64,000 nucleotides of DNA from a virus (Duplodnaviria > Caudoviricetes): IMG/VR virus record IMGVR_UViG_3300010882_000012; one strand, 5' to 3'. Below the pieces are notes generated by a model. It worked only from the letters and a program-made list of their open reading frames with translations, was not told the origin of the DNA and made no database searches. Every line of letters begins with the position of its first letter. The first letter of the stretch is position 1. Position numbers and translations under genes: made by a program. Positions 11,883-37,085 of the stretch are shown piece after piece.

Positions 11883-12518
11883 TTATTTTTTTGTTTTATA
11901 TTTTAATCCTCTACCGAATTTAAAATTCTCATCCACAATCATAAATATTTTTTCATTCAGTATAGCAAATTTCTTTATCATCTTAATTTTTTCAAACCAT
12001 TCAATATATTCTTTCATTTCTATATTGTATCTTTCCCATCCCATTTCACAAGTACTGTTTCGAGGAGGTAATGGTTTTTTTAATTTATAACTCGGTATTA
12101 TTTCTATTAAGTATTCATCTACCCACTCTTTACTTTTTATTTGAGCCCAATACTTAATTTTGTGTTTTTCTATTTCTTTATTTATAGGATTATTCCATTC
12201 TATCTCATATAATTCTATTCCCCACTTTTCTATAGTTTTACTTTCATCACAAAATTTTATCCATATTTTATCCCATGTATTTGTATAATATGGTTTTTCT
12301 TTATTAACATATTTTTTTATGTTTTTTAATTTATATGTTCCTTCCTTAAATGTACTTCCTCCGGGTTTTAAAAATTTATCATTATATGGACTTTGTCTCC
12401 ATTTTACTTTTTGTTTAATACCGGTATGATCTCCCCATTTTCTTTTAGGTATTTTGGAAATTGTATCATCTTTAATAGGATATTTTCTAGGTCTACCTCT
12501 TTTTCTTTTCTCTTCCAT
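11883..12518 (-). CDS. T4 gp4/TnsA-like head-completion nuclease homolog, apparently inactive, with N-terminal AT-hook
   Basis: KRGRPRK; KNIKKY...W....KFCD....IEKWGIE...NP...EYLIEIIP; PD and ExK residues replaced. Confidence 0.6.
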   Translation of the reverse strand: MEEKRKRGRPRKYPIKDDTISKIPKRKWGDHTGIKQKVKWRQSPYNDKFLKPGGSTFKEGTYKLKNIKKYVNKEKPYYTNTWDKIWIKFCDESKTIEKWGIELYEIEWNNPINKEIEKHKIKYWAQIKSKEWVDEYLIEIIPSYKLKKPLPPRNSTCEMGWERYNIEMKEYIEWFEKIKMIKKFAILNEKIFMIVDENFKFGRGLKYKTKK

Positions 12519-12993
12519 TTAGATTAGTAAGGCATTTTTATTTTATTTATTCAAAAAGTTTCATGTTTTGGTAGGAATTGGAAATTACATGTATTTTATG
12601 GTAGTATTTTGAGGGTATTTTGGAAAAAATCGGAGATTTTTGGAAAGTTATGGAAGAAGAGTAAAAGTATTTAGTTACTATAAGATTATTATAAGAATAA
12701 GTTTAAATTTAGTATTTTTACTGTAATGTAAAACCTTAAAACCTACATCATAAAATTCTGCAGACACTTAGTAAATTCTATAAAAACCTAGTTAAACAGG
12801 CTCGTTTTGACGAAAATTTTTAGGTCTCTATTCTAACTATCTCACACTAAGCGCTTTACACATCCTATCTACTTGGTTTGCTAGGTTTTTGCAAAAAATT
12901 AACAAATTGTTAGTATTTTCTTGCAAATTGTTAGTAACTTTTTTACTAAATTTTTACAAATCTTTCTAACTCACTTTTGCAAATTTTTTAATA
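12519..12993. other. 475-bp non-coding region with repeats and inverted class-1 motif (possible origin/terminus)
   Basis: GTATTTT repeats; IR 12782-12791/12881-12890; tandem AAATTGTTAGTA 12904 and 12925. Confidence 0.4.
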
Positions 12994-20160: not shown

Positions 20161-21432
20161 TTAACGCTCTATAATTTCAACGATATAACGAATTGTTGAC
20201 TGTTCTGTAGAATAAACCATAAACTCATTATTACGAATTGAAGTGCCGGCATGAGCATAAACACTATCAAAACCTTCACGATCAAGTTGTTTTTTATTTA
20301 AATCATAACAAGCCGATGTATGATTATAGATATGTTTTTGATTGCCCACATGAACATCATAGATTGCTAAGAAAGCTTTTTTGCTACAACCCTTTGCCCA
20401 ATAAGAACCAGAAAGAGAAGTATATCCAATAGATTTTTGTGCTTTATCTGCAAAATAAACAGAATTTCCATACATTGCACCTGTAATTATTACACCCGCC
20501 GGACGTATTAAAAGTCCGGTTTGCAAGATGTTCATCCAATTTTCATTTCTGCTACCATGCCAAAACAGTTCGCATTTTTGGTTTTTGGCTTTTGCAACAT
20601 AGCTCTTAAAGTTTCCTTCTGTTTTTTTGTTTACCACAGAAAAAGCTCTTTTGTACTGACCGGAATTGTTTCCCATCATTTTCTTAATGAGTTCTGCTTC
20701 TTTAGAAGACACTTCTTTAACTTCTAGTCCAAGTACCTCAAGCATGTCCATAGTGCTCTTAGAATTGCCCGTTTGCGTCCTGGTGGCTTCTTTTTGTTTC
20801 TTTATTGCTTCAACCTGACCCGCCATAACGTCCAAAAGTTTTTGTTCATCATCTAGCATTCGTTGTAATGATGAGGTAGAGTATCCGCTTTCTACAAGAT
20901 GGTTTTTTACGTGAGCCATTTTTCTCGGTACTGTTCGATACAATTTCAACAAACAATCATTAATAGTTGTTGAAGTACTTTGATTTCTTAAATGACCAAC
21001 CAAGTTGTCAAGGATTTTTTGAGCCTCATCAACTTGTGCTTGTGTAACATCTTCTTGAGTTACAGAATAGTTTTCTTTAATGGTTTTGTTTGCATATGCT
21101 TGGAGTTCGTCAATGAGTTGACGCACCATAGCATTCTGGATGGCGGTTACTTGTGCTCCGGTTGTAGCATCTTTGATATCGGCCTCAATCTTTTCAGTAT
21201 AGAGGTGTGTGATATCATTGTAACCTTTTTTGGTTTTTTCACGATACTTTTTATCCCAATCCGACATAGGATAAGAGTGCTCTATGGAGGTAGATTCTAT
21301 CCTGCCATAAACCACTTTAAAATTTCCATCGTTCTGCTCGAACATATGGTAAAACTTGTTGTTATTGTCCCCTGTAACACAAACCAGTTTTTTAACTTGT
21401 TTGCCTGGTACCGAGTAATCTGATATTTTCAT
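20161..21432 (-). CDS. poly(ADP-ribose) polymerase (WGR + regulatory + catalytic domains)
   Basis: NNNKFY..YGR; LYRTVP; WHGS, MYGNSVYFAD..KSIGY, NEFMVY (H-Y-E triad). Confidence 0.9.
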   Translation of the reverse strand: MKISDYSVPGKQVKKLVCVTGDNNNKFYHMFEQNDGNFKVVYGRIESTSIEHSYPMSDWDKKYREKTKKGYNDITHLYTEKIEADIKDATTGAQVTAIQNAMVRQLIDELQAYANKTIKENYSVTQEDVTQAQVDEAQKILDNLVGHLRNQSTSTTINDCLLKLYRTVPRKMAHVKNHLVESGYSTSSLQRMLDDEQKLLDVMAGQVEAIKKQKEATRTQTGNSKSTMDMLEVLGLEVKEVSSKEAELIKKMMGNNSGQYKRAFSVVNKKTEGNFKSYVAKAKNQKCELFWHGSRNENWMNILQTGLLIRPAGVIITGAMYGNSVYFADKAQKSIGYTSLSGSYWAKGCSKKAFLAIYDVHVGNQKHIYNHTSACYDLNKKQLDREGFDSVYAHAGTSIRNNEFMVYSTEQSTIRYIVEIIER

Positions 21433-21455
21433 ATGATATTGAATTTTGATAGTAC

Positions 21456-21512
21456 AAAAATACCGCTTTTTTCTTTACGATGAGAACCTAGATGGAAAAA
21501 GATACTAACAAT
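21456..21512 (-). promoter_or_regulatory. Class-1 promoter (one mismatch) for PARP unit
   Basis: ATTGTTAGTATCTTTTT plus TATTTTTG box. Confidence 0.75.
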
Positions 21513-21532
21513 TTCATGATAAGGTTTAAACT

Positions 21533-21560
21533 AAAAAAGTCCTTGATTACTCAAAGACTC
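21533..21560 (-). terminator. intrinsic terminator
   Basis: AGTCTTTGA-GTAA-TCAAGGACT-TTTTT. Confidence 0.8.
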
Positions 21561-21621
21561 TTTTAGACGTTCAAAAATCATTATTCACAAAATCTTGATA
21601 AATGAAAAAATCAAAAATTGT
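21533..21621 (-). ncRNA. candidate ~85-nt U-rich sRNA
   Basis: Own class-1 promoter and terminator; at most a 16-codon ORF. Confidence 0.6.
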
Positions 21622-21626
21622 ACTAC

Positions 21627-21683
21627 AAAAATATTGTAATTCTAGATATGAAAGTTTAGTTACATGAAAAAGTTACTAACAAT
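21627..21683 (-). promoter_or_regulatory. Class-1 promoter
   Basis: Motif plus box at fixed spacing. Confidence 0.8.
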
Positions 21684-21690
21684 CTGTTTA

Positions 21691-21723
21691 AAAAGAAAAA
21701 CGCCCATAGATTCTTTCTGGGCG
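21691..21723 (-). terminator. intrinsic terminator
   Basis: CGCCCAGA...TCTATGGGCG-TTTTTCTTTT. Confidence 0.75.
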
Positions 21724-22068
21724 CTTCTCGTCAGATTTTTGGGCGAAGGTTCTGTAACACCTTTTCTGGCAGCCTAATGGACCTAGTTGAAATCAATTGT
21801 TTTCTGTCCCGGCAGCATGCCCCATAAACCAAGATTCATTTCATGTTCAGGTTCTTGGTCGACCTGATTGCCGGCAAGGTGTTTTCGCTTTCGCTACGGA
21901 TTACCTTCGGTGCCGGCAGGCATTCTAAAGACCTGACTCGCGATTCCCGAACGGTTCGCATTATAGCGGCGGGCTCGAGGAGGTCTGGTTTTTCCGAGTT
22001 GACGTTAGGATTCCGCGCGGAGATTCCTGGTTTCTGATCAGCCTACCAGGTAGTGTCAATCGGATGAG
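21691..22068 (-). ncRNA. candidate ~375-nt GC-rich structured ncRNA (RNA1)
   Basis: Own promoter and terminator, no minus-strand ORF in track, many nested stems, pseudoknot. Confidence 0.75.
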
Positions 22069-22073
22069 ATTGT

Positions 22074-22129
22074 AAAAATACTAAAAATATCAATGCGAAA
22101 ATTTAAAAAGAGAAAAAGTTACTAACAAT
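22074..22129 (-). promoter_or_regulatory. Class-1 promoter (spacing 1 nt shorter)
   Basis: Motif 22113-22129. Confidence 0.75.
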
Positions 22130-22152
22130 TTAAACAATTTTTGATGAGGTTT

Positions 22153-22190
22153 AAAAAAGAAAAGAGTCCTTAGATTACTCTAGGACTCTC
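22153..22190 (-). terminator. intrinsic terminator
   Basis: GAGTCCTAGA-GTAA-TCTAAGGACTC-TTTTCTTTTTT. Confidence 0.85.
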
Positions 22191-22415
22191 TTCACCACCC
22201 AAATTGCTATTTGATTCCCCAATAGGTTGCAACCCTCCCAAGATTTCGGCATAGGTTCTTGGTTGACCGTCTTCTAGGTTGCTGGCGGTAATACGCTTTA
22301 AAAGCTTCCGCATCTTGCATTAACCTAATCGTGATTTTTCACCCCGACCACACTATTTGGTTGTTTTCAGCCCGGTTGTGAACCTCCTCGATTACTCGTT
22401 CGAGTCGACAATAGA
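22153..22415 (-). ncRNA. candidate ~260-nt structured RNA in 3' UTR (RNA2)
   Basis: Shares GGUYRACCAAGAACCU...AAUCUUGG with RNA1; nested stems. Confidence 0.65.
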
Positions 22416-22417
22416 TA

Positions 22418-23245
22418 TTAAAACATGTCTGCTTTTAAAATACGGATACGAACATCCGGATAAGGAACTCCAGTATAACGAGAATAAGCAGCTTTTGCTT
22501 GATTTTTTGTCATTACAGCATCATAATAACGCTCTTCCTCATCCGGGAATTTAACAGGATGTCCAAAACAAACATAATCTCCTTTTTCAGGATATGTAAT
22601 ACCTGCATCCTTATCATCAGTATCATCAATATCATCTTCAAGACGATATTGAGAATTTGCAAGCGCGCAAGGTTCATCATCAACTGTTGAAAAAAGCTCT
22701 GGATGGAATTCTTCAAGTTCTTCTAACGTAATTTCACCATAATGGATATTGGCTAAGTACTTTTTCAAATTTTCGCGGGTACCGGTCAAATTTGCGGAGG
22801 TGTTTCCAGTTACTTCAATTTCCAAATTGTAGTTTTGCAACACCTCTAAGGCCTCATCAAGTTCTTCTTCATCACATACCCAATCAACATCAACAATGAA
22901 TTGGTCATTAAGTCCGTAAAGGTCTGTAACCATTGCATTTACGGCTTGGTCATGTGCATGATCTTCATCATTCATTGCATTCAAAATGGTAAGCGCACGG
23001 AGATCATCCATAGCTTGTGCATCACAAAGAGATTTGAAGTAAATCCGGTAGTCTCCATTGTGTCTCCAGTCTATAACACCCTCATTTTTGAGGTCTTGCA
23101 TGAAAGTTGAAACAATTTGCTGCGTTGCCCAAAAATCGTTGGCGCGTAATTCGTTTTTAACTTCTAAAGTTGTGGTTTCTCCGTTCAATTCGATTAGAGT
23201 TTGTGCAACCACTTGCACATCATTTTTTGTAGTTGTCTTTTTCAT
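22418..23245 (-). CDS. acidic hypothetical protein with possible N-terminal winged helix
   Basis: TTTLEVKNELR...TQQIVS; Asp/Glu-rich. Confidence 0.8.
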   Translation of the reverse strand: MKKTTTKNDVQVVAQTLIELNGETTTLEVKNELRANDFWATQQIVSTFMQDLKNEGVIDWRHNGDYRIYFKSLCDAQAMDDLRALTILNAMNDEDHAHDQAVNAMVTDLYGLNDQFIVDVDWVCDEEELDEALEVLQNYNLEIEVTGNTSANLTGTRENLKKYLANIHYGEITLEELEEFHPELFSTVDDEPCALANSQYRLEDDIDDTDDKDAGITYPEKGDYVCFGHPVKFPDEEERYYDAVMTKNQAKAAYSRYTGVPYPDVRIRILKADMF

Positions 23246-23291: not shown

Positions 23292-23738
23292 TTATCCAAG
23301 CGGACAACCTTCTTTTCTGTAACAAGGGAATGTAGGACATCCGCCAATCATTTTTTCAGGTTCACGACAATACGCATCTTGTGGAAGCAAAGTTACACGA
23401 TCATTGTGGAATCGGTAGTAATCCGGATTTCTCTTGATATTATCAAGGTCAAAATACCACATTTTTGCAGGATTTCCATCTGTTCCTATCCAACCTTGAA
23501 AATCGGGGTGAATTTCAAAAATTTCAGTAGGGATGTAGTGCTTAAGCAACTCTTCATCCATAGAATCGGAATAACAATAAAGACCTTTTCTAACAGGTCC
23601 TTCTGACTCAGTACCCGCGAAAGTTCTCATATTACTGCCCATTTCGATGTCTCGGTCTACGTCAATAAAGTAAAAACCGCCCTCACCATTATGGTGCTGA
23701 AAGAAGATGTCTAAAAATTTAATTTCAAGTGATGTCAT
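23292..23738 (-). CDS. hypothetical protein
   Basis: First gene after promoter. Confidence 0.75.
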   Translation of the reverse strand: MTSLEIKFLDIFFQHHNGEGGFYFIDVDRDIEMGSNMRTFAGTESEGPVRKGLYCYSDSMDEELLKHYIPTEIFEIHPDFQGWIGTDGNPAKMWYFDLDNIKRNPDYYRFHNDRVTLLPQDAYCREPEKMIGGCPTFPCYRKEGCPLG

Positions 23739-32257: not shown

Positions 32258-33955
32258 TTAGAGGTTGTAAACACGTTTCATTTCTTTATTATAGAGAACT
32301 TTAATTTCATCCCATGAATTTAAGTAATAAAATTCTCCATCTTTGTAGAATTCTTTGAGTAAGTTTTTGTCTCCATATGCATCTGCTTCTTCAGGAGTCA
32401 AGTTGTCAATCATAGCATAGTTGTTTTTAGATTCATCCCAAATAACAACCGGTATACCGGTAGGAGATTTTTTAAAACTGTTCTTTTCAGATTTTACGAG
32501 TTTTTGAATTTTTTTGAAAACACCTGACATGATTTCTGCAATTCCTTTTAATGCAAAACCAAACGTATCTCTCGTAACATACTGATAAGTGAATGAACCA
32601 ATTCCAAAGCTAACGTTAATACTTGCAAATCCTTTGTCTCTAAGACGTTTGCAAATTTTGAAACATCTCTCAATTGTAATAGCATCACCGTAAGTAATTC
32701 CAATATGAGAATCATGTTCCTTAAAACCGTTTGCGTTTACAGTGCCACCGAATTCATTCCAAAGTGCTTCACACAATCCCAAATCTTCTACAGTCGGTGT
32801 GTACTCTTCATAGATATCTTTCCATGGATGATAAGCCGAAATCGAATGATCATCTTCTCTTGTTACTTTCCACCAGCTTCCATCTTTTAATCTGAAAATA
32901 ACGCCTAATCTCATTTCAGCAAAACCATTATTATGATAGTATTTCTTTGCTTCTGCCATGGTTAAGAAAATTTTTGTTTCTCTTCCACAAACAACTTCAA
33001 CCGGATCACCACTGTCAGGGCGGATGAAAACTTTTCCAGGTCTTGATAAAATTTGAGGTTTTATCTCCGGCAATACAGTAGAGATAACATTCCAAAAATC
33101 GTAAGTATCTGAAACAATTGAGATGTTGCCGCTTGGATACTTCTTTGTAATAAGAGTAAGAAATCCACGAACCTCATCAATTCCCCAACTACACATTACA
33201 GAATGTTCGGTTGACGGATTACAAGAAATAGCTCCTTTTGGTTTTTGATAAAAAGCTTTAAGATAATTACGGACAGGAACAGTAGCTGAAACATTAAAAG
33301 CAAGTAGATGTCCAGGACCTGTGCGATATGCTGCTTCCGGTTGATTCATGCCTCTCATTGAAAAGTCGCCGGCTTGATTATCAACTCGGACTTCATCTAC
33401 ACCTGTTTCTCTTGCAAATTGGATGAGAATTTTTTTGTAAACGGATGAGATAGTCCCGGATGTCATTGGACTCCAGATGTAAGAAGAAAGTTGAGTTTCG
33501 ATATAGCCAGGAATCCAGAAAAATCTTGGATCTGTATTCTCAATAGTAAACATTGCAACGCCAATAGGTACAAAAGTACCTTCCGCAAGTGCTTTTACCT
33601 TAATAGGAAGATATCCTAAAGCATGTAAAGCCCTAACATGTTCAGAACCATGATTAGCCGCCCATTCTGGATTTGTCTTTTTAAAGATATCTGTAATGGT
33701 CTCTTCGTATTCTGCAACTACATCTTCAACAGGTCTAGAGAAAAAGTAATCTTGGAAATTTTGTGTGATTTCTGCTAAAGCTCCTTGTAAAGAGTAAAAG
33801 CATACATGGTTAATTCCTTCTGCTCGTGACATCCGTGGAATCCAAGTTTCTAAAATCCATTCAATACCATCAGGATATTGGGACATGTGACAAATTTTGT
33901 AGACATCTGTCATGTCCATTGGATTTTTGATCATTCTGTCGTTTAATTGAAACAT
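32258..33955 (-). CDS. NAMPT/NadV-family phosphoribosyltransferase (Namat-like; Asp219 position is Ala)
   Basis: TDVYK..H...YP, DFSMRG, STEHS, VSDTYD, IRPDSGDP, YGDAIT, TRDTFGFA. Confidence 0.92.
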   Translation of the reverse strand: MFQLNDRMIKNPMDMTDVYKICHMSQYPDGIEWILETWIPRMSRAEGINHVCFYSLQGALAEITQNFQDYFFSRPVEDVVAEYEETITDIFKKTNPEWAANHGSEHVRALHALGYLPIKVKALAEGTFVPIGVAMFTIENTDPRFFWIPGYIETQLSSYIWSPMTSGTISSVYKKILIQFARETGVDEVRVDNQAGDFSMRGMNQPEAAYRTGPGHLLAFNVSATVPVRNYLKAFYQKPKGAISCNPSTEHSVMCSWGIDEVRGFLTLITKKYPSGNISIVSDTYDFWNVISTVLPEIKPQILSRPGKVFIRPDSGDPVEVVCGRETKIFLTMAEAKKYYHNNGFAEMRLGVIFRLKDGSWWKVTREDDHSISAYHPWKDIYEEYTPTVEDLGLCEALWNEFGGTVNANGFKEHDSHIGITYGDAITIERCFKICKRLRDKGFASINVSFGIGSFTYQYVTRDTFGFALKGIAEIMSGVFKKIQKLVKSEKNSFKKSPTGIPVVIWDESKNNYAMIDNLTPEEADAYGDKNLLKEFYKDGEFYYLNSWDEIKVLYNKEMKRVYNL

Positions 33956-35919: not shown

Positions 35920-35940
35920 TTTGATTAATTTTGATACCAC

Positions 35941-36013
35941 AAAAATAGCATAATTTTCTTTACCATGTTGTTTAAAAAGAGAAAAGTTACTAACAATTTG
36001 TGATGCCAGTAAC
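35941..36013 (-). promoter_or_regulatory. Class-1 promoter with hairpin extension; drives unit containing NAD genes
   Basis: Motif 35982-35997. Confidence 0.78.
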
Positions 36014-36259
36014 TTTTACTCTATTTCCCATTCTCTTTCTTCTGTGGTTGCTTCCGACTGAACTACAAACTCTGGGAGAAGTTTGTTTCTCGTTTCACAA
36101 ATTCAAGATACGTCTCACCACCAGATATTACCTGAATCTCCACGAGCTTAAATTCGATATGTTCTATACCTACTCGTTCTCTTAGTACTAATTAGATTAA
36201 TTAAAGTTAGCGTTCTCATCAATTTCTCTGCTTAGTTATCATCAATCAAAATTCTATTT

Positions 36260-36285
36260 TATTATGCGCAAGTTTTAAAAAGTTT
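36260..36285 (-). promoter_or_regulatory. Class-2 motif
   Basis: AAACTTTTT-N11-ATAATA. Confidence 0.5.
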
Positions 36286-36479
36286 TAGAATTGTTGGAAA
36301 AAAATTGAAATTTTATCCGGTCTTTCATGTGCTTTACAAACTAAAGATTGACAACCGATTTCTTTTAGTGCACATTGTTGACAATCATTTAGTTGATATG
36401 ATTTTACTACTTTGTATCGATTTCCTTTAAATCGGCATGTAGTTCCTAACTCTATGAAAAACTTTTTCTTCTTTTTCAT
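36285..36479 (-). CDS. Cys-rich RxDxxxVxF family paralog
   Basis: CQQC...C....C....RPDKISIFF. Confidence 0.7.
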   Translation of the reverse strand: MKKKKKFFIELGTTCRFKGNRYKVVKSYQLNDCQQCALKEIGCQSLVCKAHERPDKISIFFQQF

Positions 36480-36495
36480 ATACTATCTATTTTAT

Positions 36496-36524
36496 AAAAA
36501 GAGCCTCAGATTTCTCTAAGGCTC
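36496..36524 (-). terminator. intrinsic terminator
   Basis: GAGCCTTAGA-GAAA-TCTGAGGCTC-TTTTT. Confidence 0.85.
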
Positions 36525-36623
36525 TAGATGGTGGACCATCATGATTGCCGGTCTAATTTAATCATCCGGATGATGGTCCTTCCTGCCTGGCGAGGACTGC
36601 ATTTCACCAGTCCGGAAAGTGTG

Positions 36624-36980
36624 TTATGATAACGGTTGTGAAGTTGTTGCACACCATGGACCTCTATTAGCTGCCCAGGACGTCTCACAACGGAGATTGA
36701 TACTTGGAATAGCATAACAAACTTTGAGGTCACCAAGGTGGTCATTTACGCCCAAAAATTGAGCATCACGATAACCATATGCTTTGGCATATTTTTCAAA
36801 ACGACTACGGATTGTTCTAACCGTACTTGCCCATTTTCTACGACCTTCTGAATTGTTGAGGGAGATAATGGTACTTTGAAGTGCACGATAAACACCGTCA
36901 CGACAATTTTCGTAAACTGCATTTGTACTTACAGCTTCTTCACGAGCTGATGTTGCTGGATTTTCTTTTTTTACTGACAT
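36624..36980 (-). CDS. hypothetical protein
   Basis: Start corrected to MSVKK. Confidence 0.75.
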   Translation of the reverse strand: MSVKKENPATSAREEAVSTNAVYENCRDGVYRALQSTIISLNNSEGRRKWASTVRTIRSRFEKYAKAYGYRDAQFLGVNDHLGDLKVCYAIPSINLRCETSWAANRGPWCATTSQPLS

Positions 36981-37014
36981 GATTTTAAATTTTGATTGAT
37001 TAACTTTGTAACGT

Positions 37015-37085
37015 AAAAATACAGCTTTTATCTTTACGATAAGATTTAAAAAGAAAAAAGTTACTAACAATTTTCATGTAGTAAC
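37015..37085 (-). promoter_or_regulatory. Class-1 promoter with hairpin extension
   Basis: Motif 37055-37071. Confidence 0.8.

Follow-up and report, generated by a model that had tools for sequence, protein, structure and literature searches.

Two GC-rich non-coding segments on the minus strand of a large phage genome, here called RNA1 and RNA2, have in common a 16-nt block followed by an 8-nt block. The shared motif is real, and the way in which its letters have been kept while the sequence between them has changed suggests that it is probably selected. We tentatively propose that it acts as a sequence-specific recognition hairpin or pseudoknot, selected in and common to two phage non-coding transcripts, a reading that we regard as possible, though short of probable.

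Transcription units at the locus

The phage is IMG/VR virus record IMGVR_UViG_3300010882_000012 (146,406 bp, 30% GC, completeness estimate 56%), and the window analysed is a stretch of 64,000 nucleotides corresponding to bases 82407-146406 of that record; positions given below are those of the window. One protein of the phage carries a type IX secretion sorting domain, which indicates that the host probably belongs to the Bacteroidota. With few exceptions, the ORFs of the window are small, stand close to one another and are encoded on the minus strand. Neither ARAGORN nor Rfam detected a tRNA or tmRNA in the window or in the whole 146-kb record, and the same tools detected 11-13 tRNAs in a related record (G002). 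The layout of the locus is summarized in Table 1. Both copies of the shared motif lie on the transcribed (minus) strand of the main GC-rich non-coding island (about 50% GC vs 30%), and three terminators and three promoters follow one another ahead of the operon that begins with a PARP gene. A second NAD-related gene, NAMPT-like, is found at 32258-33955. The record holds two non-coding stretches with at least 45% GC in a 120-nt window, namely this locus and positions 35920-36623; within the latter, the GC-rich, non-coding 120 nt or so (36500-36623) that follow ORF 37070..36624 contain a long hairpin and a terminator, without the core motif. With regard to a possible replication origin or R-loop, the skew has no inflection at the locus.

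Table 1. Features of the locus in the order in which the minus strand is read (window positions)
Feature	Position	Strand	Description
Promoter copy	~23816	-	Precedes the 148-aa ORF
148-aa ORF	23292..23738	-	Orphan; first gene of the operon
275-aa ORF	22418..23245	-	Orphan; its mRNA carries RNA2
RNA2 body	22201..22417	-	Non-coding GC-rich tail, from the stop codon of the 275-aa ORF to the terminator
RNA2 arm	22275..22327	-	Irregular hairpin 5' of the core; outer 6-bp helix (22275-22280 with 22322-22327), inner 4-bp helices
RNA2 16-nt block	22253..22268	-	5' flank, 5' strand of the 6-bp helix and first four loop bases
RNA2 8-nt block	22238..22245	-	Two A's and 3' strand of the helix
RNA2 terminator	22153..22193	-	Intrinsic; stem of about 15 bp and U-tract
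RNA1 promoter cassette	22069..22131	-	Upstream box 22114-22128, -7-like box 22072-22081
RNA1 body	21736..22066 (5' end approximate)	-	Candidate stand-alone non-coding transcript, about 370 nt with terminator
RNA1 arm	21869..21918	-	7-8-bp GC helix of a palindromic 8-mer, inner 4-5-bp helix, GNRA-capped tip; in MFE and centroid
RNA1 16-nt block	21849..21864	-	Same shared block as in RNA2
RNA1 8-nt block	21829..21836	-	Same shared block as in RNA2
RNA1 terminator	21689..21725	-	Intrinsic; repeat family D5
Promoter, 85-nt unit and terminator		-	Follow the RNA1 terminator
Promoter		-	Precedes the PARP gene
PARP gene	20161..21432	-	
421-aa ORF		-	Follows the PARP gene

The promoters of this phage are copies of one cassette (an upstream box, about 35 nt, a -7-like box, and then an A-rich leader with the ATG). 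The record contains about 25 of them, almost exclusively on the minus strand (e.g., at 22128, 21682, 21511, 23816, 26088, 30466 and 37070), and the upstream box is often preceded by its own inverted copy. The same cassette, at about 80% identity, is repeated dozens of times in G002 (IMGVR_UViG_3300010167_000012, 217.7 kb), a record found via the promoter box in which 14 of 226 ORFs are detectably similar. RNA1 has a full copy of this promoter and a minus-strand terminator, and that it is a stand-alone non-coding transcript, as the preliminary description had suggested, is credible. In place of the usual A-rich leader and ATG, its promoter is followed by about 330 nt of 48-53% GC with no credible ORF. 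The 5' end of RNA1 (22036-22058) is complementary to positions 21755-21778, before the terminator, over a 19-bp helix of -23 to -24 kcal/mol, and this leader-trailer helix ranks first when compared with mismatched leader/trailer pairs. Such pairing is absent from the RNA2 unit. Leaders that are likewise complementary to the stretch before the terminator were seen in the PARP unit (21448->18865) and in the unit 30403->28945, both at rank 0 versus mismatched pairs; the complementarity amounts to -20 to -24 kcal/mol in some units and to nothing in others, on terminator calls that are crude.

RNA2 lacks a promoter of its own, no copy of the cassette being present between it and the 275-aa ORF; it follows the stop codon of that ORF and is closed by a terminator, which agrees with its earlier placement in an mRNA 3' tail. 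RNA2 is thus a GC-rich mRNA tail (GC 0.41-0.46 vs 0.30 in the genome, with short ORFs that have no Pfam match), and a separate structured RNA is putative here. Its terminator is related to those of RNA1 and of the 85-nt unit (repeat families D3 and D5, pair I6), and the terminator U-tracts downstream of both RNAs are specific to the minus strand. The neighbouring intrinsic terminators (22153-22193, 21689-21725, 21528-21564 and ~36490-36530) have a common loop motif and 70-81% identity. At 21533-21621, a full promoter copy fires into a terminator about 85 nt away, which makes this unit a candidate AU-rich small RNA; it shows many short complementarities to A-rich leaders, none of which stood out.

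A search of 5.8 billion proteins gave no relative of either protein encoded upstream of RNA2, and in G002 a match was seen only for the N-terminal 67 residues of the 275-aa protein, at 39%. The 148-aa protein yielded nothing in the ESM Atlas. For the 275-aa protein, whose C-terminal half is acidic, the Atlas gave a winged-helix lead in residues 1-80 with scores below the tool's own reliability level. Other contigs carrying both genes are 100% identical across both RNAs; the contigs stem from several samples (ENA ERZ27257295 and ERZ27257297, JGI 3300010162). Neither the vicinity of the RNAs nor the record as a whole showed a recognisable RNA-binding protein: CsrA and RRM are absent, and the neighbours of the RNAs are orphans.

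The shared blocks and their predicted folding

The 16-mer (15 of 16 positions identical) and the 8-mer could be read directly from the sequence exactly where they had been reported. When up to two mismatches were allowed, the degenerate 16-mer had two sites in the window, compared with 0.04 expected from shuffles, and the search of the whole 146,406-bp record gave these two, on the same strand, and no others. The longest word common to the bodies of RNA1 and RNA2 (at most one mismatch) is 16 nt long; in 100 dinucleotide shuffles the mode was 10 and the maximum 14. Once the collinear, perfect 8-mer is added, the joint chance expectation is, by our own estimate, near 1e-5. The pair of 16-mers was also listed by a repeat search (family D8). 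The two copies of the module are placed about 45 nt (RNA2) and 100 nt (RNA1) upstream of the terminator. Over both blocks, 23 of 24 positions are identical, whereas the spacer between them (13 nt in RNA2 vs 18 nt in RNA1) cannot be aligned, a pattern that speaks in favour of selected blocks and against recent copying.

The preliminary description had suggested that the two RNAs form a paralogous family. The shared blocks are indeed beyond chance, but the rest of the two RNAs is no more alike than shuffled sequences: outside the core, the alignment score was 8 for the upstream parts (202 and 149 nt; shuffles, 8.8 +/- 1.2) and 6 for the downstream parts (shuffles, 7.2 +/- 1.3). With no similarity beyond the core, the family assignment comes down to about 24 nt. 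A coding explanation of the blocks was rejected because the short ORFs of the region have no Pfam match and the copies of the 16-mer fall in different frames of them, and recoding (TGA=W or TAG=Q) produced nothing credible. No antisense target of the core with two mismatches or fewer was found on either strand of the 146-kb record, which weighs against a simple seed, and a short-BLAST search for antisense matches returned none that was notable. The 5' parts of RNA1 and RNA2 are perfectly complementary to each other over 10 nt (21975-21984 and 22382-22391, repeat pair I8), one side being Shine-Dalgarno-like and the other anti-Shine-Dalgarno-like; we estimate that such a match would arise by chance about once in ten at such sizes.

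Folding statistics did not bear out the label "structured" that both RNAs had been given. When the terminators were left out and energies compared with those of shuffled sequence, the body of RNA1 had a z-score of -1.67 (4 of 100 shuffles were as good) and that of RNA2 one of +0.46, no better than shuffles; the opposite strands gave +0.20 and -0.87, respectively. For the core domains, z was -1.32 in RNA1 (127 nt) and -0.57 in RNA2 (113 nt). The many helices come from the GC-richness of the island and are no more than composition predicts. Within these limits, an extended, irregular hairpin arm immediately precedes the core in both RNAs, as had been described, and the arm named for RNA2 is present in the MFE and centroid structures of its body, its 3' strand having an iso-energetic alternative pairing with 22230-22236.

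The core helix itself (CCAAGA with UCUUGG) fared poorly in nested folding, with a probability of 0.001 in RNA1 and 0.27 in RNA2. In RNA1, the 3' block is predicted to pair with nt 35-44 (window ~22023-22032; p 0.95), a segment that resembles the core, while the 5' flank and the start of the loop form a hairpin (p 0.96) and nt 207-212 are 96-100% unpaired. When the 6-bp helix is imposed on the local domains, the penalty is 2.5 kcal/mol in RNA1 and 0.7 kcal/mol in RNA2, and the resulting layout is the same in both, i.e. a three-way junction made of a closing stem, the arm and the core hairpin. This common junction, modelled on two sequences with freely chosen helices, is therefore within 0.7-2.5 kcal/mol of the MFE. 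RNAalifold found no convincing consensus for the pair. An H-type pseudoknot in which the pairing of the 5' flank with the loop start is crossed by the 6-bp helix would be geometrically reasonable; as drawn, its first stem has 5 bp in RNA1 and only 3 bp in RNA2.

Search for relatives

None of the 4227 models of Rfam 15 matched the 64-kb window at gathering thresholds. At E values up to 10 on positions 21400-22600, the best match was CsrC at 22.2 bits (threshold 61), all others being at 21 bits or less. BLAST searches, near and distant, of GenBank phages found nothing. In four pattern scans of IMG/VR (the 16-mer, the core plus its partner, loosened flanks, and the promoter box), matches to the RNA motif were coding or due to chance; the candidates turned out to be an ORF start (L018 and L045), terminase genes (the L065 group) and an unrelated hairpin (L077). 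The strict core-plus-partner pattern had no match in GTDB genome contigs and none in metagenome contigs. A covariance model built on the two copies, a check that the preliminary description had suggested, recovered nothing beyond its own training sequences (62 and 49.7 bits) in 491 kb of the phage and its relatives, the next best match having 16 bits. As no homologue was present in any collection searched, there is no covariation to draw on.

The related records G001 and G002 and six PARP loci are without the RNA island. The PARP-type protein has more than 2000 relatives, mostly on large phage-like contigs, with 45-65% identity among the best 120. The genes around its relatives at L046 and L091-L096 are tightly packed, and at the six PARP loci examined there is no non-coding island upstream, so the link between the RNAs and PARP is not conserved. 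The PARP relatives often stand beside Pyr_excise, PNKP/HAD, NT5C, AMMECR1 and metallophosphatase genes (L092, L093 and L095), which suggests a neighbourhood of DNA repair or nucleotide metabolism.

The GC-rich island of G002 is a tRNA array and has no match to RNA1 or RNA2. The array (L233:9700-13550) comprises at least 13 genes and is interrupted by several tRNA-like fragments and by an ORF (~11920-12740) with CxxC pairs that, judged by eye, suggests a homing endonuclease. On its minus strand, at 151289-151307 of G002 (L233:11289-11307), a 5-bp hairpin has a 9-nt loop with the same letters as the loop side of the RNA2 core, where they make up the linker and the 5' helix strand; it has no downstream partner block and is unmatched by the covariance model, and chance alone would yield one such 9-mer per 218 kb.

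A retron RNA was rejected since no reverse-transcriptase gene is adjacent: RVT_1 was absent from the record at E values up to 1, and the neighbouring ORFs have no such domain. At the same E limit, CsrA (PF02599) had no match in the 146-kb record either. A literature search on jumbo phages, PARP and non-coding RNA returned only unrelated cancer papers.

Possible roles of the shared module

Our proposal is that RNA1 (~22066 to 21690) and RNA2 (22417 to 22153) would be two minus-strand non-coding transcripts or transcript segments, the former made from its own copy of the standard phage promoter and the latter being the 3' tail of the orphan two-gene mRNA. Both would contain a module of 35-40 nt in which CCAAGA pairs with UCUUGG in a 6-bp helix whose flanks are invariant. 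A contact between the GGU immediately 5' to this helix and the ACC at the start of the loop may give a compact pseudoknot of the H type, the third loop of which would be A-rich. In both RNAs, a closing stem, the long arm and the core hairpin may make up a three-way junction of about 110-125 nt, with the module as one of its branches. The surroundings have diverged, yet the letters of the flanks and of the two helix strands have been retained throughout, from which we infer that the module would be read sequence-specifically, most likely by a phage or host protein. RNA1 and RNA2 would then be alternative carriers (scaffold, decoy or processing substrate) of one recognition site, provided that the RNAs accumulate, fold as modelled and have such a binding partner, as we suppose.

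Several known systems resemble this arrangement in part. The CsrB/CsrC model (RF00084), the best if weak match, was aligned over its full length up to the terminator end and across several GGA-containing stretches, which fits the concept of a protein-titrating RNA; however, its 22.2 bits stand against a gathering threshold of 61, the alignment comes mostly from the terminator and A/G-rich runs, and the record has no CsrA gene. The stable RNAs C and D of T4 (species 1 and 2) are a pair of phage non-coding RNAs whose function is not known. Like them, the two RNAs predicted here would be encoded side by side in a non-coding cluster, but the T4 pair belongs to a tRNA cluster and is processed with the tRNAs, whereas this record lacks tRNA genes. 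In the T4 gene 32 leader pseudoknot and in small pseudoknot riboswitches, a similar topology is found to that which may be drawn here, i.e. a 5' flank paired with the loop start, no second loop and an A-rich third loop. What sets the putative topology apart from those H-type operators and aptamers is a first stem of 5 bp in RNA1 vs 3 bp in RNA2, the lack of an Rfam match and a location outside any gene 5' leader. A bolder version of our proposal, which we hold to be improbable, is that the module defines a new, lineage-restricted class of phage ribonucleoprotein or aptamer RNA, with a sequence-specific pseudoknot in a three-way junction recruiting a phage or host factor. Candidates for this factor would be the two orphan proteins encoded next to the RNAs (148 and 275 aa), or the PARP-type ADP-ribosyltransferase if it acts on RNA or together with it, and RNA1 and RNA2 would be two differently expressed carriers.

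Among the explanations that compete with a recognition module, one would dispense with function altogether: the GC-rich islands could be foreign or decayed DNA carried along with the 148-aa and 275-aa genes, and the blocks could result from local duplication or gene conversion. We consider this unlikely, although it is, with the next two explanations, a serious competitor of our proposal. The unit formed by both genes, RNA2 and RNA1 is lineage-specific (neither 5.8 billion proteins nor any DNA collection searched contained a homologue), related phages carry PARP without the island, fold energies lie near those of shuffles, and similarity ends with the core, all as debris would have it. However, RNA1 retains a complete promoter, a terminator and the first-ranked 19-bp helix closing its 5' and 3' ends, identical blocks (23 of 24 positions) around a scrambled loop are not what neutral decay after duplication produces, and all contigs from several samples are identical across the region. 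The layout of a stand-alone RNA plus a 3'UTR-embedded member with one conserved stretch is that usual in families of sibling sRNAs, and the 16-nt block might accordingly be a common seed against host or phage mRNAs, with the 8-nt block as an anti-seed or part of a presenting hairpin. As in OmrA/OmrB, Qrr1-5, LhrC1-5 and CpxQ, two RNAs of one genome have a short invariant stretch in common and differ elsewhere, one with its own promoter and the other an mRNA tail, each with an intrinsic terminator, and nested folding leaves some of the block single-stranded (RNA1 nt 207-212). We nevertheless find base-pairing regulators rather unlikely. The bodies, of about 220-330 nt up to the terminator, exceed typical seed RNAs by far in length and also in GC content, the invariant stretch has an invariant and perfect internal complement that would sequester the seed, and there are two members only, with no orthologues in the collections searched. 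Complementary sites with up to two mismatches and notable antisense matches are missing from the phage record, which is the sequence that was searched.

A role in cis is about as doubtful as that of base-pairing regulators. The module could be a nut/put-like polymerase modifier ahead of terminators, or it could set the limit of a stable 3' fragment as a site of processing or stabilization. Like lambda nutL/nutR and HK022 putL/putR, it combines a short hairpin with a conserved flank and occurs twice, in otherwise unrelated transcripts and upstream of terminators, and the succession of terminators and promoters before the PARP operon would suit such a signal. Against this, neither boxA/boxB nor the two-stem put architecture was recognised by eye, no N-like or Q-like factor was identified, the downstream units have their own promoters and thus need no read-through, about 25 further units with a promoter have no such module, and some 300 nt of additional GC-rich RNA would be left unexplained. 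The inverted 6-mers present at both copies could also be read in DNA, as operator half-sites bracketing the RNA1 promoter (relative to the RNA1 start, the two copies lie at about 110-140 bp upstream and about 200-240 bp downstream), e.g. for the 275-aa protein, if the winged-helix lead in its residues 1-80, below the tool's reliability level, is correct. The half-sites, however, are spaced by 13 vs 18 positions, a difference of 5 that an RNA loop would tolerate and a dimeric DNA operator would not. Conservation is asymmetric, as it reaches 6 nt further on a single side, the distance of 404 bp between the copies corresponds to about 38.5 helical turns and puts them out of phase, and neither copy is near the promoter of the candidate regulator; we therefore judge a DNA site very unlikely. 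Small pseudoknot aptamers, finally, are H-type structures of about 40 nt with an A-rich third loop and sequence-conserved stems and loops. By analogy, the module, which would share this size, topology and letter-for-letter conservation of helix strands and lies near NAD-related PARP and NAMPT-like genes, might be a new class of small-ligand aptamer duplicated in two transcripts. We give this next to no weight: no Rfam riboswitch model matched even at E 10, neither copy is followed by a regulated ORF, riboswitch classes are widespread whereas the module was seen nowhere else in the collections searched, and the first pseudoknot stem has 3 bp in RNA2.

To our knowledge, the non-coding RNAs of large Bacteroidota phages are almost unexplored. 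The negative results obtained here matter in this respect, as the link with PARP is not conserved and the description of the RNAs as structured is not backed by folding statistics, and an orphan of a single genome is a candidate for the bench rather than a discovery. If the proposal of a common recognition module is true, this phage would encode an RNA pair, made of a stand-alone RNA of about 370 nt and its sibling in an mRNA tail, that adjoins an unusual PARP-type enzyme and NAD-salvage genes, and the module would be a handle for finding the binding partner.
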